Below, piece by piece: positions 1 through 49,494 of a stretch of 64,000 nt of DNA; positions within the stretch are counted from its first letter, which is position 1; the number at the start of each line of letters is the position of its first letter. The stretch is from Kiloniellaceae bacterium (lineage in GTDB: Bacteria; Pseudomonadota; Alphaproteobacteria; Kiloniellales; J153): assembly GCA_046758005.1 (NCBI GenBank), contig JBHHZJ010000006.1, positions 634 to 64,633 of the forward strand. The letters run 5' to 3'. The notes beneath the pieces are model-generated. The model searched no databases and was not told the origin of the DNA. It saw nothing but the letters and a program-made list of their open reading frames with translations. Position numbers and translations under genes: made by a program.

Positions 1-432
1 TTCGGCAACACGGTCGCCAATGGATCGACCACGACCAGCTTCACCTTCAAGGTCGGGACCGGCAACCAGACGTACGACGACCTGACCTTCTCGGTGAACG
101 CGGCCAGCGCCTCGGCGCTGGGGCTGAGCAACACCGGCATCAGCACCGCGGCCCTCGCCGGGACGGCCTCGACCGCGGTGTCTGCCGCGATCGATACGCT
201 GAACCAGACCCGGTCGGACATCGGTGCGGCGCAGAACCGGCTCACGTTCGCCTCGAGGAATCTGTCGACGGCGATCGAGAACGCGGAGGCCGCCCGGAGC
301 ACGCTCCTCGACCTGGACGTCGCTCAGGAAATCTCCACTTTCACGAGCAAGCAGATCCTGGTTCAGACCGGCGTGTCGATGTTGGCCCAGGCCAACCAGT
401 TGCCGCAGAACCTGCTACGTCTGTTCCAGTAA
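1..432 (+). CDS. fliC: Flagellin, C-terminal part (5' truncated by the window)
   Basis: Frame 1 is open from base 1. C-terminal flagellin signature RSDIGAAQNRL...LDLDVAQE...QILVQTGVSMLAQANQLPQNLLRL. Confidence 0.95.
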   Translation, partial: FGNTVANGSTTTSFTFKVGTGNQTYDDLTFSVNAASASALGLSNTGISTAALAGTASTAVSAAIDTLNQTRSDIGAAQNRLTFASRNLSTAIENAEAARSTLLDLDVAQEISTFTSKQILVQTGVSMLAQANQLPQNLLRLFQ

Positions 433-443
433 GGAACCGGGAC

Positions 444-471
444 GGAGAGAGGGGGGGCCCCCCCTTTCTCC
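444..471 (+). terminator. Strong hairpin between flagellin and flaG (terminator or mRNA stabiliser)
   Basis: GGAGAGAGGGGGGG/CCCCCCCTTTCTCC inverted repeat 12 nt after the stop codon; no clear U-tract. Confidence 0.5.
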
Positions 472-507
472 CCTCCCCGACGTTAGCGAGGGACAGTGGA
501 GGGTAAG

Positions 508-852
508 ATGGAAATCCGGCCAGTCATATTACCGGCTGCCGTGCCATCGGCCCCGAAGGACCAAACAGCACGGTTGCCGGGCGAGGCGAATCCCGCCACG
601 CCGCCCCCCAAAGCGGCACGGCCCGACGTTCAGACCAGCGTGCCGGACGAACCGGTCAAGGCGCGGGAAGGCCCGCGGATCGTCAAGGTCCGCGCGGAGC
701 TGCGGTTCGACGAGAGCATCAATCGCGTCGTGGGCCGCATGATCAACGAGGAGACCGGTGAGGAGGTCCGCGAAATCCCGCCGGCGGAACTTCGACGAAT
801 CTACGCGGCCATTCGCGAGATGCTCGGCTCACAGCTCGACGAGACGGCGTAA
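508..852 (+). CDS. flaG: Flagellar protein FlaG
   Basis: ELRFDESINRVVGRMINEETGEEVREIPP motif; lies between flagellin and fliD; GGAGGG before ATG 508. Confidence 0.85.
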   Translation: MEIRPVILPAAVPSAPKDQTARLPGEANPATPPPKAARPDVQTSVPDEPVKAREGPRIVKVRAELRFDESINRVVGRMINEETGEEVREIPPAELRRIYAAIREMLGSQLDETA

Positions 853-3800
853 TGGAGCTCTTCAACCTCAACAACGTGACCGTCGACGCCAGCGGCAAGG
901 TGACGTTCTCCGGCCTGAGCTCGGGGATCGACTTCAACAAGGTGACCGACGACATCATCGCCGCCAAGCGGATTCCCATAGATTCGATCGAAGCCCAGAT
1001 CACAGAGAACACCGACAAGATCACCGCCCTCGAGGATCTGCGCGGCTTGCTCACCGCGCTGAGGGACTCGCTCGACGACCTGCGCGGCAAGGTCAGCGTC
1101 GGAAACGCGGGCAACATATTCGCCGCCAAACAGGTCTTCGCGAGCACGAGCCGCACCGACGGGCTTGTTCCCAGCGCCGCCGCCAACCTTCTCGGCGCAA
1201 GCGCGACCAACGCGGCCGCGAACGACAGCCACACCATCGAGGTCCTGCGCGTGGCCGCGGCGCACAAGGTCGCCTCGACGACGTTTACGAGCAAGACGAC
1301 CGCCCTCGCCCTGTCGGGTAACTTCGAGGTGACCGGCAGCAAGGCATCGGCGACGATCGCGGTCACCGCCACCGACACGCTGCAGGACATCCGCGACCGG
1401 ATCAACAACGCCAACACCGGCACGACCGCGACCGGGATGACCGCGAGCATCGTCCAGGCCGCGACCAGTCAGTTCATCCTCGTGCTCACGTCCGACGACA
1501 CCGGCCAGAGCATGCGGATCACCGACACGGGGACCGTGCTTTCCGGCCTCGGCATCTCGTCAACCAACGGCGCCGGCGGCTTCCGCAACGGGGTCGGCGC
1601 CGCCAGCAAGATCGACGCCACCAACGACGGGTTCAAGCACATCCTGTTCGACGGCACCCAAGGGGATAAGGCGTTCCTGATCAGTTACGATCAAGCCACC
1701 AAGGTCATGACGCTCACGCGCGGGGACGGGCAGACCGACACCGCGACGTTGTCCTCCACGGCGATCGCCACCGGCAAGACCGAGACGGCGACCTTCAGCA
1801 AGTTCGGGGCCACGATCGTCCTGGACGAGAACTTCAGCAAGACGACCGACATCCTGGTGGATGCCGATACGGCCAGCGTCACCGGCGGCACCGGCGCGAT
1901 CGACGCCAACACGATCAAGATCACCGGCAGCACCGGCAACGTCTCGGGCATCGCCTCGACGACGCTCACCTTCGGCAACCTGGCCACGCCGAACGCCATT
2001 TCGGTATCGGTCGGCGGCTTCTCCGGAACCTTCGACGGCACGTCCACCGGCACCAAGACGGTGACGCTGAGCGACGGCAGCGGCAACGTGCTGACGATCC
2101 AGTTCAACGTGGGCGGAGTCTTCGACGGCACCGAGACCGCGGCCTCGATCGATTTGCAGGAACTCGAGAACCTCGTCGTCTCGAACGGCACCCAGTTCAC
2201 CAACGAGCTTCAGGCCAGCCAGACCGCCCGGTTCACGGCCGACGGCCTGCTCGACCAGGACCGCTTCGAATCCCGGTTCGTCACCAACAGCAGCTCCACG
2301 CTCAGCAGCCTGGCGCCCCAGGCGGGCAGCCCGGGCAGCTTCGACATCAAGGTCGGCAGCGGCACGGTCACGGTCAACTACACCGGCACCGACACGCTCG
2401 CCCAACTGGTCACCGCGATCAACAGCGCGATCACCACCGCCGGCGCCGGCAACGCCGTGTTCGACGCCGGCACCTCCGCCTCGCTGATGACCGATGGTGG
2501 TGGGGTCCGCCTGGTCATCACCAATACGAGCGGCGCGGCGATCTCCCTGACCGACACCAACAACCTGCTGGCCGGGCTGGGGGTCGACAACAACCTGGTG
2601 ATCGAGCGCACGAGCAACACGGTGAGCGACCTGTTCGACGGCATTACGCTGACCCTGTTCCAGGCCGAGGAAGGCACGCAGGTCAAGCTCGACGTCGAGC
2701 GGGACCTGGCCGCCGCGAAAACCGCCATCCAGAACCTCGTCACCACGTACAACGAGTTGAAGAAATCCCTCAACCAGCACTCGAAGGTCGATTCGTCGAC
2801 CGGCACGATCACCGAGGACACCGGCGTACTCTTCGGCACGCCCACCCTGCTCGGGATCACCTCGCGGGTGTCCTCGGTCTTTTCGCAGGAGACGCAGGGC
2901 GTCGACACCGCCTTCGCCGCGCTGTCGCAGATCGGCGTCAAGTTCGTCGACAACAACTCCATCTCCGACCCGTTGCTCGCCAACACGCTGGAGATCGACG
3001 AGACGGCTCTGGACGCGGCGCTGCTCAACAACCCGGACGACGTGCGCCGGCTGTTTACGTTCGACTTCTCCTCGTCCGACCCGCGGGTCTCCCTGCTCAG
3101 TTTCACCGGCAAGACGGCCTTCAACGCCTCCGGCTACACGCTCAACATCGACTTCGACGACCGCTTCCACAGCCAGGCCTTCACCGCGGGCGGTTCGTTC
3201 ACGCTGGTCGACGCACAGGACGGTGGCCCGGCTTCGGACGGCATCAGCGCGATCACCTTCGGCGACGCCGTGGTGTCCGGCAACGCCTATCGCTACAGCT
3301 ACACCAGCGCCACAGAGCAGTTGTCGCTCACCAACGTGACCACGGGGCTGACCGAGACCGTCGATATCACCAGCACGCTCGACGCCATCGGCAACGGCGG
3401 CGACCTGGACGCGGGCGAGACCGCGACGATCACCTTCTCGGCCCACAACGCCACCATCACGCTGTCCGGCGACAAGGGCTTCACGCGCGCGACCAACATC
3501 TCGAACGGGGCGCTGGACACGACGGACCTGGCCGCCAACGGCCTGACCATGACGGGCGGCGCCGTGACGACGCCGGTCAGCGGCCTGAACAAGGCCACGG
3601 TGGATGCGCTGCGCGCGGCCGGCGCATTCAGCACCACGACCGGGTTGCTGACGCTCAACGTCGATAGCACGGGCGTGGGCAACGCCACCTTCGATGCGGC
3701 GGCCGGGATCAAGTTCGCCGTGGACGGCGGGGTCATCGGCGCGGGGCCGACGGTCAACGTCGGGGACGGCGCGGCCCACACCATCGACATTTACGTGAAC

Positions 3801-4646
3801 GACGGAACCTCCGACATCAAGGTGGCGACCCACACATTCACGTCCTTGACCTCCGCCGGCGCGGGCACCGGCAACCTGACCATCGACCTGGGCACAGGGC
3901 TGGTCGGCGAGACCTCGACCGTCGCCTCCGACAAGGCGCCGATGGAGAACTTCCTGACCCTCAGCAACGGCTCGTTCGAGATCCGCGACGCATCGAGCAC
4001 GCTGCTGGGGACGGTCAGCTACAACAAGACCGACAGCCTGACCGACCTGGCCAACAACATCACGGCAAACGTCACGGACGTTTCCGCCAGCGTGATCAAC
4101 GCGAGCGGGACGTTCAAGCTGGAGATCGTCCACAAGGACCGCGACGTGCTTACCTTCACCAACGACAGCGACGGGCTGCTCTCCCAGCTCAGCCTCGCCA
4201 ACGGGGGCGACGCCGTGTTCACGGCGAACATCGACGGCGCGGCCAACGGCGGTGACAACCTGAGCACGACGGTGAGCGCACGGTCCATGACCGCGACCAG
4301 CCTGACCGGCGCGGAGGGCCTGAAGGTCTTCTACAGCGGCATCGGCGATTTGAGCGGCGTGAAGCTCAATTTCACCGTGGGCTTCGGCGCGCGCTTGTTT
4401 TTCGAGATCGACGAGTTGCTCACGGCCGAGACCGGGCTGATCGACTCGAACGTCGAAACGCTCAAGGAGCAGAACAAGCTGAGCCAGAGCCGCGTCGACG
4501 ACATGCTCGCGCGGCTCGAGCAGACCCGCGAGCTCCTCGTACAGCGCTTTATCAACGCGGAGACCGCGCTGGCGCAGGCGAAAAATCTTCAGGAGAATCT
4601 GCGTCTCGCGTTCGACGCCTTGTTCGCCAATCAGAACAAGCGATAA
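852..4646 (+). CDS. fliD: Flagellar filament cap protein FliD, unusually long (1264 aa)
   Basis: N-terminal SGLSSGIDFNKVTDDII; SNTVSDLFDGITLTL; LSQIGV; C-terminal helical RFINAETALAQ; three flagellin-IN-like motifs (TDTLQDIRDRINNA and others). Confidence 0.93.
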   Translation: MELFNLNNVTVDASGKVTFSGLSSGIDFNKVTDDIIAAKRIPIDSIEAQITENTDKITALEDLRGLLTALRDSLDDLRGKVSVGNAGNIFAAKQVFASTSRTDGLVPSAAANLLGASATNAAANDSHTIEVLRVAAAHKVASTTFTSKTTALALSGNFEVTGSKASATIAVTATDTLQDIRDRINNANTGTTATGMTASIVQAATSQFILVLTSDDTGQSMRITDTGTVLSGLGISSTNGAGGFRNGVGAASKIDATNDGFKHILFDGTQGDKAFLISYDQATKVMTLTRGDGQTDTATLSSTAIATGKTETATFSKFGATIVLDENFSKTTDILVDADTASVTGGTGAIDANTIKITGSTGNVSGIASTTLTFGNLATPNAISVSVGGFSGTFDGTSTGTKTVTLSDGSGNVLTIQFNVGGVFDGTETAASIDLQELENLVVSNGTQFTNELQASQTARFTADGLLDQDRFESRFVTNSSSTLSSLAPQAGSPGSFDIKVGSGTVTVNYTGTDTLAQLVTAINSAITTAGAGNAVFDAGTSASLMTDGGGVRLVITNTSGAAISLTDTNNLLAGLGVDNNLVIERTSNTVSDLFDGITLTLFQAEEGTQVKLDVERDLAAAKTAIQNLVTTYNELKKSLNQHSKVDSSTGTITEDTGVLFGTPTLLGITSRVSSVFSQETQGVDTAFAALSQIGVKFVDNNSISDPLLANTLEIDETALDAALLNNPDDVRRLFTFDFSSSDPRVSLLSFTGKTAFNASGYTLNIDFDDRFHSQAFTAGGSFTLVDAQDGGPASDGISAITFGDAVVSGNAYRYSYTSATEQLSLTNVTTGLTETVDITSTLDAIGNGGDLDAGETATITFSAHNATITLSGDKGFTRATNISNGALDTTDLAANGLTMTGGAVTTPVSGLNKATVDALRAAGAFSTTTGLLTLNVDSTGVGNATFDAAAGIKFAVDGGVIGAGPTVNVGDGAAHTIDIYVNDGTSDIKVATHTFTSLTSAGAGTGNLTIDLGTGLVGETSTVASDKAPMENFLTLSNGSFEIRDASSTLLGTVSYNKTDSLTDLANNITANVTDVSASVINASGTFKLEIVHKDRDVLTFTNDSDGLLSQLSLANGGDAVFTANIDGAANGGDNLSTTVSARSMTATSLTGAEGLKVFYSGIGDLSGVKLNFTVGFGARLFFEIDELLTAETGLIDSNVETLKEQNKLSQSRVDDMLARLEQTRELLVQRFINAETALAQAKNLQENLRLAFDALFANQNKR

Positions 4647-4687
4647 CCGAATCCAGGATTTCCGTACCCGCCAGGAGGGCCCAGGGC

Positions 4688-5116
4688 ATGGACGTTTCCC
4701 AGAAGTACCTGATGCAACAGATCATGGCGGCCTCACCGGCCAAGCGCGTGGCCATGCTCTACGAGCGCGCGATCGGTCTGCTCAAGGAAGCCGTGGCGGC
4801 CATAGAGGCGGGCGACATCGAGCGGCGCTGGAGGGCGAACAGCAAGGCGTCGGAGGTGATCTGCCACCTCTGGGAAACGCTCGACATGGAGCGCGGCGGC
4901 GAGATCGCGGCGGACCTTGGCCGCCTCTACGAGTTCATTGTCCGGCGCCTGACCGCGGTCGATGTGGCCAACGATCCGCAGGCGGCGCGGGAGGTGATCC
5001 GGCTGCTCGACCCCCTGCGGCGGTCCTGGCACGAGCTTGCCGAGGCCGCCGCCGCGCAAGACGGCTCCTCCGGATCGGACCAGCCCGTGCCCACCCAAAT
5101 TACGCTTTCGGCCTGA
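4688..5116 (+). CDS. fliS: Flagellin export chaperone FliS (paralog 1)
   Basis: ASPAKRVAMLYERAI...LDMERGGEIAADLGRLYEF...LRRSW. Confidence 0.9.
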   Translation: MDVSQKYLMQQIMAASPAKRVAMLYERAIGLLKEAVAAIEAGDIERRWRANSKASEVICHLWETLDMERGGEIAADLGRLYEFIVRRLTAVDVANDPQAAREVIRLLDPLRRSWHELAEAAAAQDGSSGSDQPVPTQITLSA

Positions 5117-5289
5117 GCCGTGCCGAACGGGCCGTCATGGACTTCCTCGACGCCGACAAACGGGTCAGGCCGTTCATCAATCCGCATCGGCTGGTCGCGA
5201 CCGAGGCGCAGTTCAAGTTACTGATCAGGAACAACAAACCCTAATCCGCAAGACCGACCCCGAGATCGGCGGCTGCAAAACGGAGGACA

Positions 5290-5811
5290 GTGCGGGTGAA
5301 CCGGCAGCTTCAGACATATGGAACCCAGCAGGTGATGACCAGCGATCCGGTTACGCTCGTCGCCTTGCTCTACGACAAGGCCGTCCTATCGTTGAAGGCC
5401 GCGGTCAAGGCCATTCGCGACAACCAGATCGAGAACCGCTGGCGCGCCAACAACAGGGCGGTGGAGATCATCAAGCACCTGCTCATGACGCTCGACATGG
5501 AAAAGGGCGGCGAGATCGCCAGCAACCTGGAGGCGATTTACGCCTACATCCTTCGCCGCCTCGTCGATGTGGACGTGAACAATGACTCCCGGGCGGCGGA
5601 AGAGGCCATCGCCCTGCTCGAGCCGCTGCGCGCGTCGTGGACGGAGCTGGCCCGGGCCACCGGGAACGTCGCGGTCGACGATCCCAAGCTCCGCACCCTG
5701 GCCGCCGCGGCGCCCGCGGACGGCGAGGCCGCCGGTCCGGGCGCGCCCGACGCCCGGATCGGCGCAGACCCCTCGCCCGCCGCCGTCGGAACCGTCTGTC
5801 TCTCGGCCTGA
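5290..5811 (+). CDS. fliS: Flagellin export chaperone FliS (paralog 2)
   Basis: YGTQQVMTSDPVTLVALLYDKA...LDMEKGGEIASNLEAIYAY...LRASW; GGAGGA RBS before GTG. Confidence 0.92.
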   Translation: MRVNRQLQTYGTQQVMTSDPVTLVALLYDKAVLSLKAAVKAIRDNQIENRWRANNRAVEIIKHLLMTLDMEKGGEIASNLEAIYAYILRRLVDVDVNNDSRAAEEAIALLEPLRASWTELARATGNVAVDDPKLRTLAAAAPADGEAAGPGAPDARIGADPSPAAVGTVCLSA

Positions 5812-5952
5812 GCAGCACCGTATAAAGCGTCTCGGGGCATGGGCCGCCGTTGGCCCGGCCCCGTTCTGCGCGCCGGCAGGCCCGGCCGCGGCCGCGCGGG
5901 CGGCACCCGCTCGGGCCCCTTGGCCGGGGTGCGGCAAAAAGGGTCGGGCCGG

Positions 5953-5969
5953 CGGGCACGATTTGCCGG
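5953..5969. promoter_or_regulatory. Putative FlbD-binding ftr enhancer
   Basis: CGGGCACGATTTGCCGG (GGCA-N5-TGCC dyad) about 110 bp upstream of a sigma54 promoter. Confidence 0.5.
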
Positions 5970-6048
5970 CCAACGGCAGCAATATCTTCCCCCAAGGCTC
6001 CGAATGCGGCCGGCACCAAACCGGGCTCGGCAGATACATTTAGCTTAA

Positions 6049-6061
6049 AAACAAGTACTTA
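6049..6061 (+). promoter_or_regulatory. Putative IHF site
   Basis: AAACAAGTACTTA is one mismatch from WATCAANNNNTTR; AT-rich context between the ftr-like site and the sigma54 promoter. Confidence 0.5.
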
Positions 6062-6078
6062 AGGAACATTTGCCGGTT

Positions 6079-6094
6079 TGGCACGGTGGTTGCT
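6079..6094 (+). promoter_or_regulatory. Sigma54 -24/-12 promoter for fliS3-fliK-flgD-flgE
   Basis: TGGCAC-GGTGG-TTGCT, an exact consensus match. Confidence 0.85.
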
Positions 6095-6194
6095 CCTACG
6101 CTATTGCCGGGAATGCCCGGGCGAACCCGCGCTGCGCCGCCCGGACCCGAGCGGTCCCGCGCGGCGGGTGCGAACAGGAGGAACAGGACGACCG

Positions 6195-6593
6195 ATGGCT
6201 TTGGCAGCGTCCCAGGAACAGCACGACGAGACGGCGGCGGCGCGCCCCGAACGCGCCGGATTGGCGGGCTACGACGCCGCGGTCCGCGCGCTCGAGGACG
6301 CGGCCGCGGCGATCGCAGAGGACGACATCGAGGCGCGCTGTCATGCGGTTCAAGCCGCCACCGAGGCCGTCACGACAATGTACCTGGACCTCGACATCCG
6401 ACGCTGCGGCGAGCTCGTGCAGAGCCTGAGCACGCTCTACCACGTGATCCTCGGCCGGCTGCTGCGCATCAACCTGGATAACGATCCGGCGACGGCGCGC
6501 GAGGCCATCGAACTGCTCGAACCTTTTCGCGCCGTCTGGGCGGCCGGCGGGGACCCGCTGGCCCCGCCGCAACGCGCGGCCGGTCCGCAATAA
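6195..6593 (+). CDS. fliS: Divergent FliS-like protein (paralog 3)
   Basis: YDAAVRALEDAAAAIAEDDIEAR...LDLDIRRCGELVQSLSTLY...LLEPFRAVW resembles the other two FliS; ATG 6195 follows AGGA. Confidence 0.75.
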   Translation: MALAASQEQHDETAAARPERAGLAGYDAAVRALEDAAAAIAEDDIEARCHAVQAATEAVTTMYLDLDIRRCGELVQSLSTLYHVILGRLLRINLDNDPATAREAIELLEPFRAVWAAGGDPLAPPQRAAGPQ

Positions 6594-6618
6594 ACCCGCA
6601 CACAGGACGGCAACCAGG

Positions 6619-8631
6619 ATGGAAGCCCACGCGATCACGCCAGCCAAGGCCAGCCCACCGCCCGCTAGGCCGGAACCGCGAAGCGGACTCGGCGACCTGT
6701 TCCACGTCTTGTTGCGGGCGAGCGCGCGGCGGCTCGCGGTCGAGGCCGCGCCGGCCTTGCACGCGGCGGACGGCGTAGCGCGCGCCCCGCGCGCCGAGCC
6801 CCGTCGCGAACCGGCGAGCGCGCCGACATCTTCCGATCCGGACCGGCGCGCGGACGAACCGGAGGCGCAGGCCGCCGCCGGTTTGAAACCCACGGCGGAC
6901 CCGGAACCGCGGGAACCGGAGAAGGAGCGCGCGGAGCCGGAGGAGATGGCGGGTCGATCGGACGCACCGCCCCGGATCGCCGACCCGGACAACGCCGAAC
7001 CCGCCCGCCTTGCGGCCGACAACGAGGTCGCGCCAGGCGCACCCCCAGGCGCACCATTGGACCCCGCGGGCGCGCCCGGGGAACCCGTCGGGGCCGCGGC
7101 GCCCGCTCCGGCACCGAACTTCGCCGCCGAGACCCCCGCCGGAGCGGCGCGCGCGGCCGGCACGGATGGCCACCTTGTCCCGGCGGCAACGCGCCTGGCC
7201 GCACAGGCCCAAGCCGCCGCCGCGTCGGCGCCGGAGGTCCCGGCGGGTCCGGCCGGTGCGGCGCTCCGCGTCGAGTTCACACCGGCCACGCTTGTGGCCC
7301 CGCCCAACGCCGCGCTGGGCGGCGGTGCCGCGCTCGCGGTATTGGCGGCGAACGCCGCGCAACGCGCGGCGGCGCAGGACGGCCAAACCGGCCCGAACCG
7401 ACCGGCATCGCGCGCCAACGCGGCCATGGTTGCGCCCGGGACGGCGCCGGCATCCGCGCCCTCCGTGGCCTCGGCCGCCGGCAATCCGGGACAGACCGCC
7501 GGCCAATCGCGCGCCGGGGCACCGGGCGCGCCCACGCCCAATCCGAACGCCGCGGCGGCAGGGACTCACGCCGGCCGGGGTGCGAAACTCGTCGGCGCAA
7601 CCCCACCTACGGCGCCCGCCGCGACGCCGGGCGGGCCGGCGCAAGGCGACGCCACGGCCGCGACCGACCACGCTTTGCAGGCCCCCATCAACGCGCAGGC
7701 GCCGTTCGCCGAGTCCCGCAATTCCCGGGCCCGCAACGCGGACGCATTGAGCGCGCCGAGCGCAAGCACCGCGATGCCGGAGGCCCGCAACCGAAACGCG
7801 CTCGCCCAGAACGCGGCGGCGCCGGGCGACGGCGCGCGGGCCGAGGCGGGGCCCGATGCGCGAATCCAGGAGCTACCGGGTCCGCAGGGCGGGCCGCACG
7901 GACGGTCGCAGGCCGCGCCGGCGTCCGCGCACGCGCCGGACGGGCAGGCGCGGAGCGCGGCGAGCCAGGGCGGACACACGGCCGACTCATCGGCACCGTC
8001 CGTCGCTTCCCCACCGGGGGCGACGCCCGGGCAGCCGGCCGCGGCCATGGCGACCGCCATGCCGCTCGATCCGATCACCCCGGCCCGCCACGCCGATCCC
8101 GCAGGGCCCCAGACCGCCAGCCTGCCGGACGCTGCGGCGGGCGGCCCGGCCCAGGCGGCCGGGCGCGCGGCGGCCACGCTGCCCGCGCACGCGCGCCCGG
8201 GCGCGGCGCTGTCGGTCCCCGTGGATCAGGTCGCCGTGCATATCCAGCGCGCCGCCGCCCGCGGTGAGGACCGCATCCGCATCCGCCTGCATCCGGCCGA
8301 ACTCGGCCAGATCGACGTCAAGCTCAAGGTCGGTTCCGACGGCATCGTCAAGGCGGTCGTCTCGGTCGATCGGGCGGATACCCTCGATCTGCTGCAACGC
8401 GACGCGCGGGGGCTCGAGCGCGCGTTGCAAGACGCCGGCCTGAAGACCGATTCGGGAAGCCTCAGCTTCAACCTGCGCGGCGGCGGTCAGGGCGGCCTCG
8501 ACGCCCGGCACGAGGCGCCGGCCCACGCGCCTTCGAGCGCGGAGCGCGCCGACCGGCCGGAAGCGCCTGCCGAGACCGGACCGCAACCGACGCCCTTCGT
8601 GTCCGAGCGCGCCTTGGACATTCACGTTTAG
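6619..8631 (+). CDS. fliK: Flagellar hook-length control protein FliK
   Basis: Long Pro/Ala-rich region, then IRIRLHPAELGQIDVKL...DTLDLLQRDARGLERALQDAGL...LSFNL; upstream of flgD. Confidence 0.92.
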   Translation: MEAHAITPAKASPPPARPEPRSGLGDLFHVLLRASARRLAVEAAPALHAADGVARAPRAEPRREPASAPTSSDPDRRADEPEAQAAAGLKPTADPEPREPEKERAEPEEMAGRSDAPPRIADPDNAEPARLAADNEVAPGAPPGAPLDPAGAPGEPVGAAAPAPAPNFAAETPAGAARAAGTDGHLVPAATRLAAQAQAAAASAPEVPAGPAGAALRVEFTPATLVAPPNAALGGGAALAVLAANAAQRAAAQDGQTGPNRPASRANAAMVAPGTAPASAPSVASAAGNPGQTAGQSRAGAPGAPTPNPNAAAAGTHAGRGAKLVGATPPTAPAATPGGPAQGDATAATDHALQAPINAQAPFAESRNSRARNADALSAPSASTAMPEARNRNALAQNAAAPGDGARAEAGPDARIQELPGPQGGPHGRSQAAPASAHAPDGQARSAASQGGHTADSSAPSVASPPGATPGQPAAAMATAMPLDPITPARHADPAGPQTASLPDAAAGGPAQAAGRAAATLPAHARPGAALSVPVDQVAVHIQRAAARGEDRIRIRLHPAELGQIDVKLKVGSDGIVKAVVSVDRADTLDLLQRDARGLERALQDAGLKTDSGSLSFNLRGGGQGGLDARHEAPAHAPSSAERADRPEAPAETGPQPTPFVSERALDIHV

Positions 8632-8655
8632 CCGACCGGCAAGGAGTCGTCCGCC

Positions 8656-9324
8656 ATGGAAATCAACGGCGTGGCCTTCAAGGAACCGACCACCGGCGGG
8701 TCCAACGCCGGGCAGTCGCTCGCCGGCACGTTCGACACGTTCCTCACGCTGCTGACGGCCCAGCTGCAGAACCAGGACCCGCTCGATCCGCTCGACAGCA
8801 ATCAGTTCACCGAGCAGCTCGTGCAGTTCGCCGGGGTCGAGCAGTCGATCACCACCAACAAAAAGCTGGACCAGCTGGTCCAACTCCAGACGAGCAACCA
8901 GTTGAACGGCGCAGTCTCCTACATCGGCCGCACGGTCGAGGTGGTCAGCGACCAGCTCCTGCTCGACGACGGGGCCGCCACGATCAGCTACGGCCTGGAC
9001 GGCAACGCCGCGCAGACGATCGTCAACATCGTCGACGAGACCGGGCGCATGGTCCGCACCGTCAACGGCGAGACCGCGGCCGGGCGCCACGAGTTCAAAT
9101 GGGACGGCCGGGGGTCGAACGGCGCCCAGCTTCCCGACGGCGTCTACAACTTCACCGTGACGGCCGTGGATTCGAACGACAAGACCATCGACGCGGTGAC
9201 CGCGTCCATCGGCCGCGTGACCGGGGTCGAGATAGTGGACGGCGTCGTGACGCTCAACATCGGCGCGCTGGGGGTGCCGTTCGATTCGATCTTCGCCGTC
9301 CGCGAGGACCAACCGCAGACTTAA
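8656..9324 (+). CDS. flgD: Hook capping protein FlgD
   Basis: FLTLLTAQLQNQDPLDPLD...FKWDG...LPDGVYNF. Confidence 0.96.
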   Translation: MEINGVAFKEPTTGGSNAGQSLAGTFDTFLTLLTAQLQNQDPLDPLDSNQFTEQLVQFAGVEQSITTNKKLDQLVQLQTSNQLNGAVSYIGRTVEVVSDQLLLDDGAATISYGLDGNAAQTIVNIVDETGRMVRTVNGETAAGRHEFKWDGRGSNGAQLPDGVYNFTVTAVDSNDKTIDAVTASIGRVTGVEIVDGVVTLNIGALGVPFDSIFAVREDQPQT

Positions 9325-9406
9325 ATTCGGCACCGACGATCGATCACATGACGGACCATCGCAGCCGGGGCAGGACGCCCCCGCCAGGTAAGGAGGAGAT
9401 TTCAGG

Positions 9407-11968
9407 ATGAGCATCTTTGGTGCGATGTTTTCCGGTGTCACCGGGCTGGACGCGCAGAGCCAGGCGCTGGGCATGATCGCGGACAACATCTCCAACGTGA
9501 ACACGGTCGGATACAAGGCGACCACGACCCGCTTCTCCACGCTGGTGACCGAGTCGGCCTCGCGAACGCGGTTCACCCCGGGCGGCGTCCAGTCCCTGCC
9601 CGCCCAAGGCATCGACAGGCAGGGCCTGCTGCAGTCCTCCACGTCGCGGACGGACGTGGCCATCGCCGGGCGCGGTTTCTTCGTCGTGAACGAGTCGGCC
9701 AAGCCGGGCGTCGGCAACGAGTTCCTCTTCACCCGGGCCGGGTCGTTCAATCCGGACGAGAACGGCAATCTGATCAACACGGCGGGCTACTTCCTGCAGG
9801 GATGGCCGCTGACCAACGGCACGACGCTGCCGACCAACACCAGCGTTCTGACCAGCGTGCAGACCGTGAACGTGTCGAACCTGGCCGGCACCGCGAGCCC
9901 GACGACGAGCGTCGACCTGGCGCTCAACCTGCCCTCGACCGCGGCCGCGGCGACCGGCGGCGGCCAGATCAACACCAAGATCTCGGCCTCCACCCTGGCC
10001 GGCATCACGGACATCGACTACAAGGCGTTCGGCACGCTCGGGCAGGTCGCAAAGCTCACCTACGACTCGGTGCTGAAGCGGATCACCCTCGACATCGGCG
10101 GCCAGACCGGGGTCTTCGACGTGAGCGCGCAGACCGCCACGACCTACACGAGCACCGGCACGCTCGCGGGCATGGAGATCACGCTGGACACGAATTTCAA
10201 TTACAACACCAGCGTCACGACGCAAACGAACACGATCACCGAGACCAACCGCACCGGCACCGACACCGCCGATTTCACACAGGCGACCAACCTGAACGGC
10301 ATCCAGACCATGTCGTTCAACAGCGTGGTTTCCAACAACGACATCATCACCGTCGATTTCGACAGCGTGAGCGGCACGCTCACGGTCAGGGACCAGACCA
10401 CGGGCGACACGGGATCGGTGATTATCGGCACCACCGGCGGCAACGGCGTGAAGGACTTCACATTGACCGGCGGCACCCTGGCCGGCACGGTCGTGACGAT
10501 CGACACCAACGTCTTCAACTTCACCACGTCGTTCAACAACACGATCAACGCCTCCACCGGCGTGCGGAGCGGAGCGAGCACCGACACCAACGGCGTCACC
10601 ATCAGCAGCTTCGCGATCGGGAGCCTCGACGCGGCCGCCCTGCGCAAGGTCGATACCGGCATCAAGGCCTTCACGCTGACCATCACGGAGGCCGCCGGCG
10701 CCGACGGAATCGCGATCAGCAACAACACCGGCTCCGTGTTTACGACCGCCACCATCACCGCGGGCGACGTTAGCGCCGGCGCCACGACCATGACCATCAA
10801 CGTCAGTGACGGCACCGACTCCTTCGACGTGACGTTCAACACCAGCGGCGCGGTTTCCGCCGGCAACACGCTGGTCGTCGACGTGACGTTGAACGAAATT
10901 CTCAACAAGGTCGCGGCCGAGAACGACAACTTGGTGGTCGCCGCGACCACCCCGACGATCAGCAGTTTCGACGCCAACGACCTGGCGGCGATCGACAAGA
11001 CGGCAATTACGTTCAACGTCGATGCGAAAGGCCGTGTCGTCATGGAGAGCGGCCCGACGGGGTTCTCCGTCAACCAGTCCCAGAGCGACAGTTTCGCGAC
11101 CGCCGGCAACCGGAACATCGTGCTCACCGACGGAACGAACACCTTTACGGTCACGCTCAACGTGACCACGCCGATCACGGCCGGCAGCGCCGATGTCGCG
11201 GTCGACCTGCTCGAGCTGACGAACAGTGTCGGGCTCGGCAGCCCCATCGCCGGCGGGCAGTTCTCGTCCACGGTCCAGATCTTCGATTCGCTGGGCAACG
11301 CCCACGACCTGGAGATCCAGTACCTGAAGGAGGCCACCAACCAGTGGACCATCACGGTCCTGGACCCGGTCCTGGCTTCGACCGGGGCCAAGAGCGGCAC
11401 GGTGGTCAACGCCACCCGGAGCATCGTCTTCAACGGCGACGGCACGCCGCAGACGATCACCTTCCCCGACGTCCGGATCACGGGCTGGACCACCGGGGCA
11501 ATCGACAGCACGGTCGCCATCAAGCTCGGCACGACCAGCAAAGCCGACGGGGTGACGCAGTTCGCCGGCGAGTTCTCGATCAGCTCGATCGACCAGGACG
11601 GCGTGCGCTTCGGCGGTTTCGTCGGGGTGAACATCAGCGAGACCGGCGTCGTCACCGCCGTGTTCGACAACGGCGAGCAGTTGGCGATCTACAAGCTGCC
11701 GGTCGCCATCTTCGCCAACCCGAACGGCCTTGAGACGGTGAGCGGAAACGCCTTCCGGCAGACCGACACCTCCGGCGATATCCTGCTCCAGCAGGCCAAC
11801 AGCGGCGGCGCGGGCACGGTGGCCTCCTCGGCCCTGGAGTCCTCGACCGTCGACCTGGCCGAGGAGTTCACCAAGATGATCACGACCCAGCGGGCCTATT
11901 CGGCCAGCGCCCGGATCATCACCACGGCAGACGAAATGCTCGAAGAGCTGATCCGCATCCGCCGATAG
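9407..11968 (+). CDS. flgE: Flagellar hook protein FlgE, enlarged (853 aa)
   Basis: IADNISNVNTVGYK, FTRAGSF, IFDSLGNAH, LESSTVDLAEEFTKMITTQRAY; large insertion at about 9960-11250. Confidence 0.96.
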   Translation: MSIFGAMFSGVTGLDAQSQALGMIADNISNVNTVGYKATTTRFSTLVTESASRTRFTPGGVQSLPAQGIDRQGLLQSSTSRTDVAIAGRGFFVVNESAKPGVGNEFLFTRAGSFNPDENGNLINTAGYFLQGWPLTNGTTLPTNTSVLTSVQTVNVSNLAGTASPTTSVDLALNLPSTAAAATGGGQINTKISASTLAGITDIDYKAFGTLGQVAKLTYDSVLKRITLDIGGQTGVFDVSAQTATTYTSTGTLAGMEITLDTNFNYNTSVTTQTNTITETNRTGTDTADFTQATNLNGIQTMSFNSVVSNNDIITVDFDSVSGTLTVRDQTTGDTGSVIIGTTGGNGVKDFTLTGGTLAGTVVTIDTNVFNFTTSFNNTINASTGVRSGASTDTNGVTISSFAIGSLDAAALRKVDTGIKAFTLTITEAAGADGIAISNNTGSVFTTATITAGDVSAGATTMTINVSDGTDSFDVTFNTSGAVSAGNTLVVDVTLNEILNKVAAENDNLVVAATTPTISSFDANDLAAIDKTAITFNVDAKGRVVMESGPTGFSVNQSQSDSFATAGNRNIVLTDGTNTFTVTLNVTTPITAGSADVAVDLLELTNSVGLGSPIAGGQFSSTVQIFDSLGNAHDLEIQYLKEATNQWTITVLDPVLASTGAKSGTVVNATRSIVFNGDGTPQTITFPDVRITGWTTGAIDSTVAIKLGTTSKADGVTQFAGEFSISSIDQDGVRFGGFVGVNISETGVVTAVFDNGEQLAIYKLPVAIFANPNGLETVSGNAFRQTDTSGDILLQQANSGGAGTVASSALESSTVDLAEEFTKMITTQRAYSASARIITTADEMLEELIRIRR

Positions 11969-11988
11969 GCGCGCTGCGCGGCGATAAG

Positions 11989-12034
11989 GCGGCCGGTCCG
12001 TGATAGGCGAACGTTCCTAATCCGGACCGGCCGC
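11989..12034 (+). terminator. Stem-loop after flgE
   Basis: Perfect 12-bp stem GCGGCCGGTCCG/CGGACCGGCCGC with inner TAGG/CCTA pairing; no U-tract. Confidence 0.4.
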
Positions 12035-38585: not shown

Positions 38586-38741
38586 CGGCGCCGCAGCCGA
38601 ACGCCTTACATAGCCGTGGGTTGAGATCGCCGGTGAAGTGGATCAAGATCAATCCGGGCGCACGGCGCCGTGGCCGGAAGGGCGAACCGCCGGACACGCG
38701 CGGCGGATCGGAGCGAAACGAAAGGGGGACGGGGCGAAACA

Positions 38742-40457
38742 ATGGCTGAAGGCGAGGCCCGCGACGATCGTGCCTTGGGACGCAGGATCCACCCCGGCTC
38801 TGGCCGGCGCGAGGGGCCGATCTTCCCGAAGGGCCGCCGGCTCGATCCGGCCGCGCGCGAGGAAATCCGCACGCTGCTCGGCGGCCGGCCGCGCCGGCGC
38901 GACCTCCTGATCGAGCACCTGCACCTGATCCAGGACCGCACCGGCTGCCTTGGCGCGGCGCACCTCCACGCACTCGCCGAGGAAATGAAGCTGCCCATGG
39001 CCGAGGTTTTCGAGGTGGCCTCGTTCTACGCCCACTTCGACATCGTACTCGACGGCGAGGACCGGCCCCCGGAGATAACCATCCGGGTGTGCGACAGCCT
39101 GTCCTGCGAGATGATGGGCGCGCAGAAGCTGCTCGCCGAACTGCCCGCGCAGGTCGGCGCCAACGTGCGCGTTGTGCGCGCGCCATGCATGGGCCGATGC
39201 GACGCCGCGCCGGTGGCCGAGGTCGGGCACCGCCACGTCGATCACGCGAGCGTTCAGCTGCTCGCCGAGTCCGCCAGGAACGGGCGTCTCCATCCCGAGA
39301 TGCCCGACTACCGGAACCTTGCCGCCTACCGGGCCGACGGCGGCTATGCCAGGCTCAAGGACTGCCTCGAGGGCCGGCTCGGCGTCGAGCAGGTGATCGA
39401 CACGCTGGGCGAGTCGGGCCTGCGCGGGTTGGGCGGTGCCGGGTTCCCCACGGGGCGCAAGTGGACCTTCGTGCGCGCCGAACCCAAGCCCCGCTACGTC
39501 GCCGTCAACGCCGACGAGGGCGAGCCCGGCACCTTCAAGGACCGCTACTACCTCGAGCGCACGCCGCACCAGTTCCTGGAGGGCGCGCTGATCGCCGCCT
39601 GGGCCGTGGAGGCGGAGGCCGTCTATATCTATCTGCGCGACGAATACCCTGCGGCGCGCGCAATCCTGCTCGAGGAGATCGCGGCGATCGAGGCGGCCGG
39701 GCTTAGCCCCCACACCAAGCTGCACCTGCGCCGCGGCGCCGGCGCCTACATCTGCGGCGAGGAGTCGGCGATGATCGAGTCGATCGAGGGCAAGCGCGGC
39801 CTGCCCCGCCACCGCCCGCCCTACGTGGCCCAGGTCGGCCTCTTCGGCCGGCCCACCCTCGTGAACAACGTCGAGACGCTCTACTGGGTTCCGGAGATTC
39901 TGACCAAGGGTGCGGCGTGGTTCGCCGGCCAGGGCCGCCACGGCGGCAAGGGGCTGCGCAGCTATTCCGTCTCCGGGCGGGTGAGGGAACCGGGTGTGAA
40001 GCTCGCCCCGGCCGGCATCACGGCGCGCGAGCTCGTCGAGGAGTACTGCGGCGGGATGGCCGACGGCCATGAATTCAAGGCCTATCTCCCGGGCGGCGCC
40101 TCGGGCGGCATCCTGCCCGCGAGCCTGGCGGACATCCCGCTCGACTTCGGCACGCTCGAGAAACACGGCTGCTTCGTCGGCTCGCACGCGGTCGTGATCC
40201 TCTCCGACAAGGACGACGTGAAGGCCGCGGCGCGCAACCTCATGCGCTTCTTCGAGGACGAGAGCTGCGGTCAGTGCACGCCCTGCCGGAACGGCACCGA
40301 AAAGGCGGTCAAGCTGATGTCGGACGATAAGTGGGATGGGCCGCTGTTGGAAGAGCTCGCCGCGGCCATAGGAGACGCCTCGATCTGCGGCCTGGGCCAG
40401 GCGGCGCCCAACCCGCTGCTCAGCGTGCTCAAACACTTTCCGGAGGAGGCCCAATGA
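38742..40457 (+). CDS. NAD-dependent formate dehydrogenase beta subunit (NuoE+NuoF-like fusion; Fdh1B type)
   Basis: 2Fe-2S CDSLSC...CMGRC; GLRGLGGAGFPTG; ADEGEPGTFKDR; GAYICGEE; ESCGQCTPC. Confidence 0.92.
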   Translation: MAEGEARDDRALGRRIHPGSGRREGPIFPKGRRLDPAAREEIRTLLGGRPRRRDLLIEHLHLIQDRTGCLGAAHLHALAEEMKLPMAEVFEVASFYAHFDIVLDGEDRPPEITIRVCDSLSCEMMGAQKLLAELPAQVGANVRVVRAPCMGRCDAAPVAEVGHRHVDHASVQLLAESARNGRLHPEMPDYRNLAAYRADGGYARLKDCLEGRLGVEQVIDTLGESGLRGLGGAGFPTGRKWTFVRAEPKPRYVAVNADEGEPGTFKDRYYLERTPHQFLEGALIAAWAVEAEAVYIYLRDEYPAARAILLEEIAAIEAAGLSPHTKLHLRRGAGAYICGEESAMIESIEGKRGLPRHRPPYVAQVGLFGRPTLVNNVETLYWVPEILTKGAAWFAGQGRHGGKGLRSYSVSGRVREPGVKLAPAGITARELVEEYCGGMADGHEFKAYLPGGASGGILPASLADIPLDFGTLEKHGCFVGSHAVVILSDKDDVKAAARNLMRFFEDESCGQCTPCRNGTEKAVKLMSDDKWDGPLLEELAAAIGDASICGLGQAAPNPLLSVLKHFPEEAQ

Positions 40458-43216
40458 GCGGACCGGTCAAGTTCACGTTGAACGGCCAGGATGTCGAAGC
40501 CGCCCCCGGCGAAACCATCTGGCAGGTGGCCCACCGGCTCGGCATCGAGATCCCGCACCTGTGCTATTCGCCGGAGCCGGACTACCGCGCCGACGGCAAC
40601 TGCCGCGTGTGCATGGTCGAGATCGAGGGCGAGCGCGTGCTCGCCGCCTCCTGCATCCGTGCGCCGAGCCAGGGCATGAAGGTCTCGACCGCCTCCGAGC
40701 GCGCCCGCAAGTCGCGCGAGATGGTCTTCGAGCTGCTGGTCGCCGACCAGCCGCCGCGCGAGCGCGCGCACGACCCCGAGTCCAAGTTCTGGCGCTGGGC
40801 CGAGAAAGTCGGCGTGACCACGAGCCGCCTGCCCGCGCGCGAGCCGATCGCCGCCGACCCGAGCCATTTGGCCATGCGGGTCAACCTGGACGCGTGCATC
40901 AACTGCACCCTGTGCGTGCGGGCCTGCCGCGAGGTCCAGGTCAACGACGTGATCGGCATGGCCTACCGGGGCCACGGCGCCAAGGTCGTCTTCGACTTCG
41001 ACGTTCCCATGGGCGAGAGCACCTGCGTCGCCTGCGGCGAGTGCGTACAGGCCTGCCCGACCGGCGCGCTCATGGAAGCGAGCCTGCTCGACGAGCATGG
41101 CGTGCGCACGGGGTTCGAGGACCGCGACGTCGAGACGGTGTGCCCGTACTGCGGGGTGGGGTGCCAGACCACGCTGCACCTCAAGAACGACAAGGTGCTC
41201 TACGTCGACGGCCGCAACGGCCCGGCCAACCGGAACCGGCTGTGCGTGAAGGGCCGCTTCGGGTTCGACTACATCTCCCATCCGCATCGCCTGTCCAAGC
41301 CCATGATTCGGCGCGCGGACGCGGCCAAGTCGGCGGACATCCAGATCGACCCGGCCAATCCCTGGACGCACTTCCGCGAGGCGACCTGGGAGGAGGCGCT
41401 GGACGCGGCGGCGGCGGGCCTCAAGAGGATCCTGGAGCGCGACGGGAGTCCGGCGCTCGCCGGCTTTGGCTCGGCCAAGGGCACCAACGAGGAGGCCTAC
41501 CTGTTCCAGAAGCTGGTGCGCACCGGCTTCGGCACCAACAATGTCGATCACTGCACGCGCCTGTGCCACGCCTCCTCGGTGGCGGCGCTGATGGAGGGCA
41601 TCGGCTCCGGCGCGGTGACCGCGCCCTTCACCGCGGCCAAGGACGCCGAGTGCATCATCGTGATCGGCGCGCGGCCCGAGCAGAACCACCCGGTGGCCGC
41701 GACCTTCCTCAAGAACGCGGCCAGGCGCGGCGCCAAGCTGATCATCATGGATCCGCGCGACCACGCCATGGCGCGCTACGCCACCCATATGCTGCGCTTC
41801 AAGCCGGGCCAGGACGTGGCGCTGCTCAACGCCATGCTGCACACGATCATCGAGGAGGGCCTGACCGACCGGCAGTACGTCCAGGCCCACACCGAAGGCT
41901 TCGAGGAGCTCAAGCAGCGGGTCAAGGCCTTCGCGCCCGAGGAGATGGCGGAAGTCTGCGGCGTCGAAGCGGCGACGATCCGCGAGGTGGCGCGCACCTA
42001 CGCGACCTCGCGCGCCTCGATCATCTTCTGGGGCATGGGCATCTCGCAGTCGGTGCACGGCACCGACAACGCCCGCTGCCTCATCTCGCTGGCGCTCGTG
42101 ACCGGGCACGTCGGCCGGCCGGGCACGGGCCTGCACCCGCTGCGCGGCCAGAACAACGTGCAGGGCGCCTCGGACGCCGGCCTCATCCCCATGGTCTATC
42201 CCGACTACCGCTCGGTCGCATCGGAGGACATCCGCAGCCAGTTCGAGGACTTCTGGGGCACGCGGCTCGACCCCAAGCCCGGCCTGACCGTGGTCGAGAT
42301 CGTGAACGCCATCCTCGAGGGCCGGATCAAGGGCATGTACATCATGGGCGAGAACCCGGCCATGTCCGACCCGGACCAGAACCATGCCCGCGCGGCGCTG
42401 GCCAAGCTGGAGCATCTCGTCGTCCAGGACATCTTCCTGACCGAGACCGCCTGGCACGCCAACGTGATCCTGCCCGCCTCGGCCGCGGCCGAGAAGACCG
42501 GCACCTTCACCAACACGAACCGCGAGGTGCAGCTCGCGCGTCAAGCCTTCGACCCGCCCGGCGAGGCGCGCCAGGACTGGGCGCTGATCCAGGAGATCGC
42601 CCGGCGCATCGGGCTCGACTGGGCCTACACGCACCCCAGCGACGTCTTCGCCGAGATGGCCCGGGTCATGCCCTCGCTCGACAACATCACGTGGGCGCGC
42701 CTGGAGCGAGAGGACTCCGTCACCTATCCGTGCGACGCGCCGGACAAGCCGGGCAACGAGATCATCTTCGCCGAGGGCTTCCCGACCGAGAGCCGGCGCG
42801 GGCGTATCGTGCCGACCGACCTGACCCCGCCGGCCGAGCTGCCCGACGAGGACTATCCCATGGTGCTGTCCACGGGGCGGATGCTCGAGCACTGGCACAC
42901 CGGCGCGATCACCCGGCGGGCGAGCACGTTGGACGCCCTCGAGCCGGAGGCGGTCGCCCTGCTCAACCGCCGGGACGTCGAGCGCCTGGGCGTCGCGCCC
43001 GGCGACATGATCAGGGTGGAGACCCGGCGCGGCCGGATCGTGATCAAGGTGCGCCAGGACGGCGACGTGCCGCAAGGGATGGTCTACATCCCGTTCTGCT
43101 TCGCCGAGGCGGCGGCCAACGTGCTGACCAACCCGCAACTCGACCCCTATGGCAAGATCCCCGAGTTCAAGTTCTGCGCCGCGCGCGTGGAGCCGGTGCG
43201 CGCGGCCGCCGAGTAG
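40454..43216 (+). CDS. NAD-dependent formate dehydrogenase alpha subunit (Mo/W-bisPGD; Fdh1A type)
   Basis: N-terminal Fe-S clusters, CPYCGVGC, catalytic CTRLCH, PLRGQNNVQG; no signal peptide. Confidence 0.95.
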   Translation: MSGPVKFTLNGQDVEAAPGETIWQVAHRLGIEIPHLCYSPEPDYRADGNCRVCMVEIEGERVLAASCIRAPSQGMKVSTASERARKSREMVFELLVADQPPRERAHDPESKFWRWAEKVGVTTSRLPAREPIAADPSHLAMRVNLDACINCTLCVRACREVQVNDVIGMAYRGHGAKVVFDFDVPMGESTCVACGECVQACPTGALMEASLLDEHGVRTGFEDRDVETVCPYCGVGCQTTLHLKNDKVLYVDGRNGPANRNRLCVKGRFGFDYISHPHRLSKPMIRRADAAKSADIQIDPANPWTHFREATWEEALDAAAAGLKRILERDGSPALAGFGSAKGTNEEAYLFQKLVRTGFGTNNVDHCTRLCHASSVAALMEGIGSGAVTAPFTAAKDAECIIVIGARPEQNHPVAATFLKNAARRGAKLIIMDPRDHAMARYATHMLRFKPGQDVALLNAMLHTIIEEGLTDRQYVQAHTEGFEELKQRVKAFAPEEMAEVCGVEAATIREVARTYATSRASIIFWGMGISQSVHGTDNARCLISLALVTGHVGRPGTGLHPLRGQNNVQGASDAGLIPMVYPDYRSVASEDIRSQFEDFWGTRLDPKPGLTVVEIVNAILEGRIKGMYIMGENPAMSDPDQNHARAALAKLEHLVVQDIFLTETAWHANVILPASAAAEKTGTFTNTNREVQLARQAFDPPGEARQDWALIQEIARRIGLDWAYTHPSDVFAEMARVMPSLDNITWARLEREDSVTYPCDAPDKPGNEIIFAEGFPTESRRGRIVPTDLTPPAELPDEDYPMVLSTGRMLEHWHTGAITRRASTLDALEPEAVALLNRRDVERLGVAPGDMIRVETRRGRIVIKVRQDGDVPQGMVYIPFCFAEAAANVLTNPQLDPYGKIPEFKFCAARVEPVRAAAE

Positions 43217-49481: not shown

Positions 49482-49494
49482 GGTTCAGGTCTCC

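Follow-up and report, generated by a model that had tools for sequence, protein, structure and literature searches.

We report that the filament cap protein FliD and the hook protein FlgE of a Kiloniellaceae bacterium (assembly GCA_046758005.1) carry homologous segments that are very likely copies of one portable outer-domain cassette of flagellar axial proteins, a cassette that would give these proteins an acidic and cysteine-free outer coat. Both genes are present in a 64,000-nt stretch of contig JBHHZJ010000006.1, here referred to as the window. Two modules, A (~80 residues) and B (~105 residues), make up the cassette and together form one unit of ~200 residues with two all-beta domains. 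Using the window, the rest of the genome (a 3.65 Mb draft in 205 contigs, 93% complete) and sequences from other organisms, we demonstrate the homology of the copies, their architecture, the nesting of one copy within another and their distribution. The two genes and their modules are listed below (positions are those of the window; aa, amino acids; AF2, AlphaFold2).

852..4646, + strand: fliD, filament cap protein, 1264 aa, Pfam FliD_N at aa 24-138 and FliD_C at aa 578-739
1269..1577, + strand: FliD module C1, aa 140-242, hhalign 96.0-96.6% to C2 and C3
1578..1853, + strand: FliD unit 1 module A, aa 243-334, with N-terminal RNG..SK linker; shuffles, hhalign, alignment, AF2
1854..2186, + strand: FliD unit 1 module B, aa 335-445, hhalign 93.7% to B_E1 and 96.3% to B_E2
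2187..2561, + strand: FliD module C2, aa 446-570, hhalign 96.0% to C1 and 97.4% to C3
3228..3500, + strand: FliD unit 2 module A, aa 793-883, hhalign 97.2% to A_D1 and 94.8% to A_E2
3501..3911, + strand: FliD unit 2 module B', aa 884-1020, 0.5-1.8% to the three B segments, 97.8% to the post-A part of flagellin
3912..4241, + strand: FliD module C3, aa 1021-1130, hhalign 96.6% to C1 and 97.4% to C2
9407..11968, + strand: flgE, hook protein, 853 aa, Pfam Flg_bb_rod, LlgE_F_G_D1, FlgE_D2 (618-732) and Flg_bbr_C
9992..10222, + strand: FlgE outer unit A1, aa 196-272, matched in 17/17 short FlgE (E 4e-25 to 1e-39)
10289..10540, + strand: FlgE inner unit A2, aa 295-378, matched in 0/17 short FlgE, hhalign 94.5% to A_E1
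10592..10921, + strand: FlgE inner unit B2, aa 396-505, hhalign 97.5% to B_E2, a separate clade in the B tree
10934..11242, + strand: FlgE outer unit B1, aa 510-612, matched in 17/17 short FlgE (E 1e-26 to 1e-34)

FliD was identified by FliD_N (PF02465; 51.1 bits, cut-off 24.8) and FliD_C (PF07195; 111.4 bits, cut-off 25.4), and its gene is flanked by flaG and fliS. For FlgE, the rod N-terminus, D1, FlgE_D2 and the FlgEFG C-terminus all score above the Pfam cut-offs, NCBIfam NF004242 is matched at 365.3 bits (cut-off 365), and the gene is preceded by fliK-flgD.

A preliminary description of this DNA had placed eight segments in the two proteins, and all eight lie in frame at the reported positions in fliD (852-4646) and flgE (9407-11968). 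They are referred to, by position, as A_D1, A_D2, B_D1 and B_D2 in FliD, and A_E1, A_E2, B_E1 and B_E2 in FlgE. Smith-Waterman scores of the pairs were tested against 300 composition-preserving shuffles. The resulting z-scores were 11.0 for A_D1-A_D2, 6.9 for both A_D1-A_E1 and A_E1-A_E2, 5.6 for B_E1-B_E2 and 3.5 for B_D1-B_E2, with 0/300 shuffles reaching the score in each case, and 3.2 for A_D2-A_E2 (3/300 shuffles). Three pairs of the same type were at background (A_D1-A_E2 0.2, A_D2-A_E1 0.45 and B_D1-B_D2 0.3), and the 16 A-versus-B pairs had z-scores of at most 2.4.

The question of homology was settled by profiles built from 15 FlgE and 21 FliD orthologues, which were compared using hhalign, six further stretches of FliD and FlgE serving as controls. 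Within the A family the hhalign probabilities were 94.5% (A_E1-A_E2), 92.9% (A_E1-A_D1), 94.8% (A_E2-A_D2) and 97.2% (A_D1-A_D2), and within the B family 97.5% (B_E1-B_E2), 93.7% (B_E1-B_D1) and 96.3% (B_E2-B_D1), while all 16 A-B pairs gave ≤23.7% and all 48 module-versus-control pairs ≤9.8%. Matches of the same type extend over 47-93 columns, and a single multiple alignment covers the copies in FliD, FlgE, FlgL and sheath proteins (see below). Module A is thus common to FliD and FlgE as had been claimed, all four segments being homologous with four of the six A-A pairs at 92.9-97.2%. The corresponding claim for module B holds for three segments (93.7-97.5%) and fails for the fourth, FliD 3501-3908, which in this profile-profile comparison does not rise above the controls (0.5-1.8% to B).

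By its profile, this fourth segment (FliD 884-1020) is a separate module, B', which FliD has in common only with the neighbouring flagellin. A diverged B can be ruled out, given the 0.5-1.8% and since the C-terminal slice of FliD 884-1020, which holds the motif on which the original assignment rested, reached at most 8% by hhalign and is no better than controls (11-17%). FliD has in addition a third type of repeat, C, which is present three times (96-97% between copies by hhalign), such that the overall layout is C-A-B-C ... A-B'-C. The C modules are marked in three stretches by Pfam Flagellin_IN (PF07196; 22.7 bits, equal to the cut-off of 22.7), and this match is confined to them, with A, B and B' outside. 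In the protein set collected here the C profiles matched no FlgE, flagellin, FlgL, FlgK or sheath protein, and a guess that a FlgE from elsewhere (P0233, see below) carries a C module was not supported by any of the three C profiles.

As first described, the segments run A-B ... A-B' in FliD, and in FlgE they run A-A-B-B. Insight into how the latter arose comes from 17 shorter FlgE relatives of 620-627 aa, in which only A1-B1 is present with A and B ~13 residues apart; the B2 profile matched 9/17 of these, weakly (2e-7 to 7e-10). In the 853-aa FlgE, A2-B2 is located within the 238 residues that separate A1 from B1. A phylogenetic tree of the B modules places B of the short FlgE proteins and the outer B in one clade (Shimodaira-Hasegawa-like approximate likelihood ratio test, SH-aLRT, 98) and the inner B apart from these (87). 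Since all 17 short proteins match A1 and B1, none matches A2, and the outer B groups with theirs, we read the FlgE sequence as one A-B unit inserted between A and B of another, i.e., A1[A2-B2]B1. Two tandem duplications as the source of A-A-B-B are ruled out by the same matches and the B tree. A FlgE of 626 aa is encoded by a relative (G031) representing one genus of the same family.

Scanning 29,939 six-frame open reading frames (ORFs) of the genome with the module profiles identified two more carriers. In FlgL (contig C40, 539 aa) module A is present at residues 179-257 (E 1.9e-11), with hhalign values of 86-94% to all four A profiles. The flagellin encoded just upstream of fliD gave profile matches at E 5e-13 and 1.9e-12, and its cassette lies mostly upstream of the window (contig C6, bases 1-648). 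By hhalign its module A matches A_D2 at 98.1% and its post-A part B_D2 at 97.8%, and FliD unit 2 is therefore a flagellin-type unit (A-B'). No copy was detectable in FlgK in the genome ORF search, and the middle region of FlgK reached at most 1.2% by hhalign. Hence, among the three axial proteins that had been proposed as further places to look, FlgL and flagellin carry the cassette and FlgK has no detectable copy. The genome search detected no second flagellin gene, and an assembly break interrupts the one described here within the part coding for its outer domains (C40 end, L003 4725-5249; C6 start). Contig C40 terminates with the N-terminal 175 residues, which follow directly on flgK-flgL and break off where a module A has just begun; contigs C40 and C6 are probably adjacent.

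Searching with FliD 250-450 retrieved 46 proteins, 42 FliD and four contractile-tail sheath proteins. The FliD proteins come in two forms, one of ~1000 aa with A-B only and one of ~1260 aa with A-B plus A-B'. The four sheath proteins (P0050, P0073, P0077 and P0078), all from other samples, carry the whole unit, which is 49-58% identical to the FliD copy, and one of them has two units. As for their identity as sheath proteins, Phage_sheath_1 and Phage_sheath_1C were matched in our Pfam scan by P0073 (45.8 and 65.7 bits) and P0050 (47 and 52.8 bits), and a precomputed PF04984+PF17482 listing holds all four, including P0077 and P0078; P0073 also matches PHROG 23, tail sheath (E 8e-71). In P0073, a 344-residue segment that holds the unit (residues 83-426) replaces 56 residues of a minimal relative of 407 aa. 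When shorter proteins were searched, a FliD-type unit (59-60% identity) was moreover found in the FlgE P0233, which is cut at its 5' end, and A-B (~40% identity) in the complete flagellin P0236 (491 aa). The proposal that one domain set was shuffled between axial proteins is therefore supported, and on a wider scale than suggested, as it includes FlgL, flagellin, another FlgE and four sheath proteins.

Distribution counts were made with a module-only profile (A5). The cassette was detected in 7/14 genomes (5/8 genera) of the family and in 22/401 genomes (18/308 genera) of the class sample, and in 0/400 other genomes of the phylum sample. Among 31 carrier ORFs listed, the own FlgL, two duplicates and one fragment were left out; the 27 scanned correspond to seven FliD and 20 proteins of flagellin/FlgL type, with no FlgE or sheath among them. 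Close relatives of FlgE and FliD mostly bear names of Alphaproteobacteria or Kiloniellaceae, along with single metagenome-assembled genomes labelled Planctomycetota and Gammaproteobacteria. Cassette-bearing sheaths are rare: 0/160 listed loci with sheath-core relatives of P0073, 80 each from genome and metagenome contigs, had the cassette, and no match was found in a pattern scan of IMG/VR or by tblastn of phage records. Using the PF04984 family model, no sheath gene was detectable in the genome studied here. Within the class sample two other arrangements were noted. In two genomes belonging to a single genus (G185, L200/L179; G355, L201/L181), FliD has one A followed by three tandem B (A-B-B-B), and the outer region of one flagellin (L186 of G184) has five FG-GAP repeats together with module A.

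B follows directly after A in FliD, in the 17 shorter FlgE relatives and in other carriers. The AF2 model of FliD 241-445 is all-beta (predicted local distance difference test, pLDDT, 95.1; predicted template modelling score, pTM, 0.86), with six predicted strands in A and approximately nine strands plus a short helix in B. For the FlgE insert the model is weaker (pLDDT 72.2, pTM 0.43), and it gives the same strand pattern per module in A1, A2, B2 and B1. No Pfam, NCBIfam or PHROG family covers any part of the cassette (A, B or B'), and searching all PDB sequences with phmmer and a 7-row module-only profile gave no flagellar match, the best being an antibody chain at E 0.077. Structural comparison returned weak neighbours of B in both models among flagellar proteins, namely FlgK (4ut1, 9go6), FlgL (5ziz, 7c7z) and the Geovibrio flagellin (9au6), and at lower rank FliD (9m67, 5h5v) and a tail sheath (3hxl). 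The weak neighbours of A, again in both models, are C2-like sandwiches. Foldseek gave no usable match in PDB (best rows legume lectins, E 0.028, template modelling (TM) score 0.16) or in BFVD (best E 0.003, TM 0.26), and look-alikes in the ESM Atlas, with scores of 0.80 at most, were uninformative. The ranges of the structural alignments hint at a nested topology, in which a loop of one domain may hold the other.

Copies within this genome are 27-42% identical and window positions 1-12000 have no DNA repeats >39 nt, showing that the duplications are old; a recent gene conversion is excluded by the lack of such repeats. In a tree based on 61 units, the units of FliD, the sheath proteins and flagellin P0236 constitute one clade (100/98), in which sheath units appear at three places among the FliD units, and FliD is a single clade in 0/200 bootstrap trees. 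In the approximately unbiased (AU) test, FliD monophyly (p 0.29) and a single sheath clade (p 0.47) both escape rejection, and the former means that nesting of other copies in FliD is not established. For the sheath copies we favour transfer from FliD to sheath, considering how rare the sheath carriers are and that their copies begin with the RNG..SK linker of the FliD type.

An alternative view of the origin is that FliD unit 1 is the lineage's own cap head, i.e., the counterpart of D2 with an inserted D3, and the donor of all other copies. We regard this as possible although rather doubtful, and it would refine the cassette explanation with respect to origin without contradicting it. Unit 1 occupies the stretch from FliD_N to FliD_C in which head domains are located, the trees group the copies of the sheaths and of P0233 among those of FliD, and fold-level precedents have been published (PMC11532411, PMC10457771). 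Several flagellar structure matches span model residues 1/2-205 with ~80 residues aligned, which fits with A being inserted in B and would then parallel the insertion of Head 2 in Head 1 of the Pseudomonas aeruginosa FliD (see below). The unit is also present in every FliD found in the family; relatives lacking the unit had no detectable FliD_C, and the search for FliD_C in five such cassette-less relatives, where none was found, is uninformative with respect to insertion versus native head. On the other hand, neither phmmer nor the profile links the unit to any solved FliD, FliD monophyly is not rejected by the AU test, and the same FliD has three C modules as well.

Returning to the portable cassette, we envisage that it occupies the variable part of flagellar axial proteins that faces outward, and that copies were made long ago as flagellar genes underwent duplication and recombined with one another non-homologously. 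This would have resulted in the layout of the present genome, with A-B and A-B' in FliD, a nested pair in FlgE, A plus a weak B in FlgL and A-B' in flagellin, after which the copies would have been retained across the family. A FliD-type copy may also have moved into a few contractile-tail sheaths, at least one other FlgE and at least one flagellin. With respect to function, the units are acidic (net charge -3 to -24; whole units -6 to -24), Thr-rich (11-22%), Gly-rich and cysteine-free, and other outer domains of flagellins alter diameter, stiffness or surface chemistry, as described for the examples in PMC11532411 and PMC8931119. By analogy, the cassette could cover hook, junction, filament and cap, and thereby everything of the flagellum that lies outside the cell, with one shared outer layer, changing its diameter, stiffness or surface properties; this is a tentative suggestion, quite possible in our view.

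Instead of forming a structural coat, the cassette might bind ligands or mediate adhesion, as a lectin-like or surface-binding module, or might serve as a scaffold for O-glycosylation, which we consider unlikely. Consistent with such a role are the acidic character and the Thr content of the units, and adhesion by outer domains of FliD and flagellin is discussed in PMC11532411. The legume lectins that top the Foldseek rows point in the same direction, but fall short of significance (E 0.028 or worse, TM 0.16). Moreover, no glycosyltransferase or sugar-synthesis gene was found in a scan of 37 ORFs that was confined to the window, and a sheath assembled in the cytoplasm would miss a flagellum-specific glycosylation route. 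Less likely still, a portable surface domain of helical polymers might have moved between two unrelated machines, the flagellum and a phage-tail-like contractile particle, with the sheath copies mimicking or binding the flagellar surface of the same hosts. If so, like-with-like contact might let the tail-like particle ride on a flagellum that bears this domain as its coat, or recognise it.

Several observations weigh against one portable outer cassette and should be considered together. Composition-adjusted BLASTP of FliD versus FlgE gave no match (best E 1.6), two A-A pairs are weak by hhalign (A_E2-A_D1 56%, A_E1-A_D2 2.7%), and the post-A part of FlgL reaches only 25% to B_D1. To these we add the outcome of the AU test, and that outward exposure is deduced from the position in known axial proteins. 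Because of the BLASTP result the concern, expressed from the start, that a shared composition could refute the similarity is fair; yet shuffles that preserve composition leave z-scores of up to 11. Thus, it is very improbable that the similarity reflects chance or convergence due to a Thr/Gly/Ser/Asp-rich beta-strand composition without shared ancestry: the BLASTP result, background pairs such as A_D1-A_E2 and B_D1-B_D2 and the unsupported fourth B would agree with this, but z-scores of 5.6-11 remain after shuffling, profiles from separate orthologue sets match at 93-97.5% where regions of similar composition in the same proteins give ≤9.8%, and FlgL, flagellin and sheath proteins are independent carriers at E 1e-11 to 1e-84.

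The window has a GC content of 64-77% and starts with a classical flagellar cluster in the order flagellin 3' end, flaG, fliD, two fliS, fliK, flgD and flgE, followed by a DUF1153 gene and then fliF, fliG, fliN, a sigma-54 activator gene, flhA, fliI and che genes. The other genes of the cluster start are:

1..432, + strand: flagellin gene, 3' end, Pfam Flagellin_C E 1.2e-22, gene start on another contig
496..852, + strand: flaG, Pfam FlaG E 5.7e-9
4688-5116 and 5290-5811: fliS, tandem pair, Pfam FliS E 1.5e-32 and 4.9e-33
6619-8631: fliK, 670 aa
8656-9324: flgD

The two fliS genes have a 32-nt stretch in common at 88% identity. One of the paired FliS chaperones might serve flagellin and the other a second cassette-bearing substrate. 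The fliK gene lies within the most GC-rich part of the first 20 kb (window 6001-8000, 75% GC). Long ORFs were also noted on the opposite strand, at 1691-2203 (-) in fliD and 10201-11670 (-) in flgE; their third-position GC of 0.93-0.94 equals that of the sense frames, and the high GC content of the genes probably produces these frames as an artefact. Two separate molybdopterin oxidoreductase clusters of the formate-dehydrogenase type (38670-43216 and 48885-52362), accompanied by FdhD and a delta-type chaperone, are located downstream of the motility genes.

Axial proteins are believed to have acquired their outer domains piecemeal, and the published cases are based on fold only and concern one protein each. 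The starting premise that these outer domains as a rule have nothing in common between axial proteins was too strong, considering the folds shared by FliD, FlgK and FliC (PMC5072837) and by flagellin and FliD (PMC11532411) in the structures that these papers describe. The principle is hence already published at the fold level, and what is new is the cassette family itself, hitherto unannotated, which extends the known borrowing of axial outer domains to the hook and the junction. In a literature search in which subscription journals were not covered, we found no sequence-level cassette common to hook, junction, filament, cap and sheath. A cassette that can be traced by sequence marks the hook, junction, filament and cap, i.e., all extracellular parts of one flagellum, and records a nested insertion event inside one bacterial family. 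It also represents a concrete family for domain databases and a tractable system for studying the effect of a uniform outer coat on the flagellum. The Pfam family Flagellin_IN, a short flagellin/FliD motif, differs from it in that here it marks the C modules and lies outside A, B and B'.

In P. aeruginosa FliD, Head 1 is reported to resemble FlgK (4UT1) and the inserted Head 2 to resemble FliC (Postel et al. 2016, eLife, PMC5072837), at 14-17% identity, termed 'vanishingly low' in that report. Compared to these heads, the copies studied here are 27-42% identical within one genome and reach 60% between FliD here and a FlgE elsewhere, whereas a sequence link to a solved FliD is lacking. For the flagellin of Geovibrio thiophilus, D4 is described as related to FliD D2, D5 as a duplicate of D4 inserted in a D4 loop and the D2 fold as 'mainly found in hook-associated proteins', and the authors propose that pre-existing flagellar domains were added stepwise via recombination (PMC11532411, Nat Commun 2024). 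The present case is similar in that outer domains are taken from other flagellar genes, and the Geovibrio structure (9au6) is among the top neighbours of both our models. It differs in that the Geovibrio evidence is fold-based and restricted to flagellin, while ours comes from sequence profiles and involves FliD, FlgE, FlgL and flagellin of one genome, and in that the nested copy sits in the hook protein. With respect to sheaths, a review on sheath evolution draws the likeness to flagellin as an analogy only in the passage concerned (PMC9230969), and the insertion domain of the Vibrio phage XM1 sheath is reported to resemble FliD D3 and may derive from the host (PMC10457771, Viruses 2023). Given that phage records and IMG/VR gave no cassette match, XM1 is not a sequence relative of the cassette. 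Moreover, the XM1 link is one of fold only, whereas the four sheaths identified here are 49-58% identical to the FliD cassette, and this identity would constitute direct sequence evidence for an exchange between flagellar cap and tail sheath, which the XM1 structure had only hinted at.

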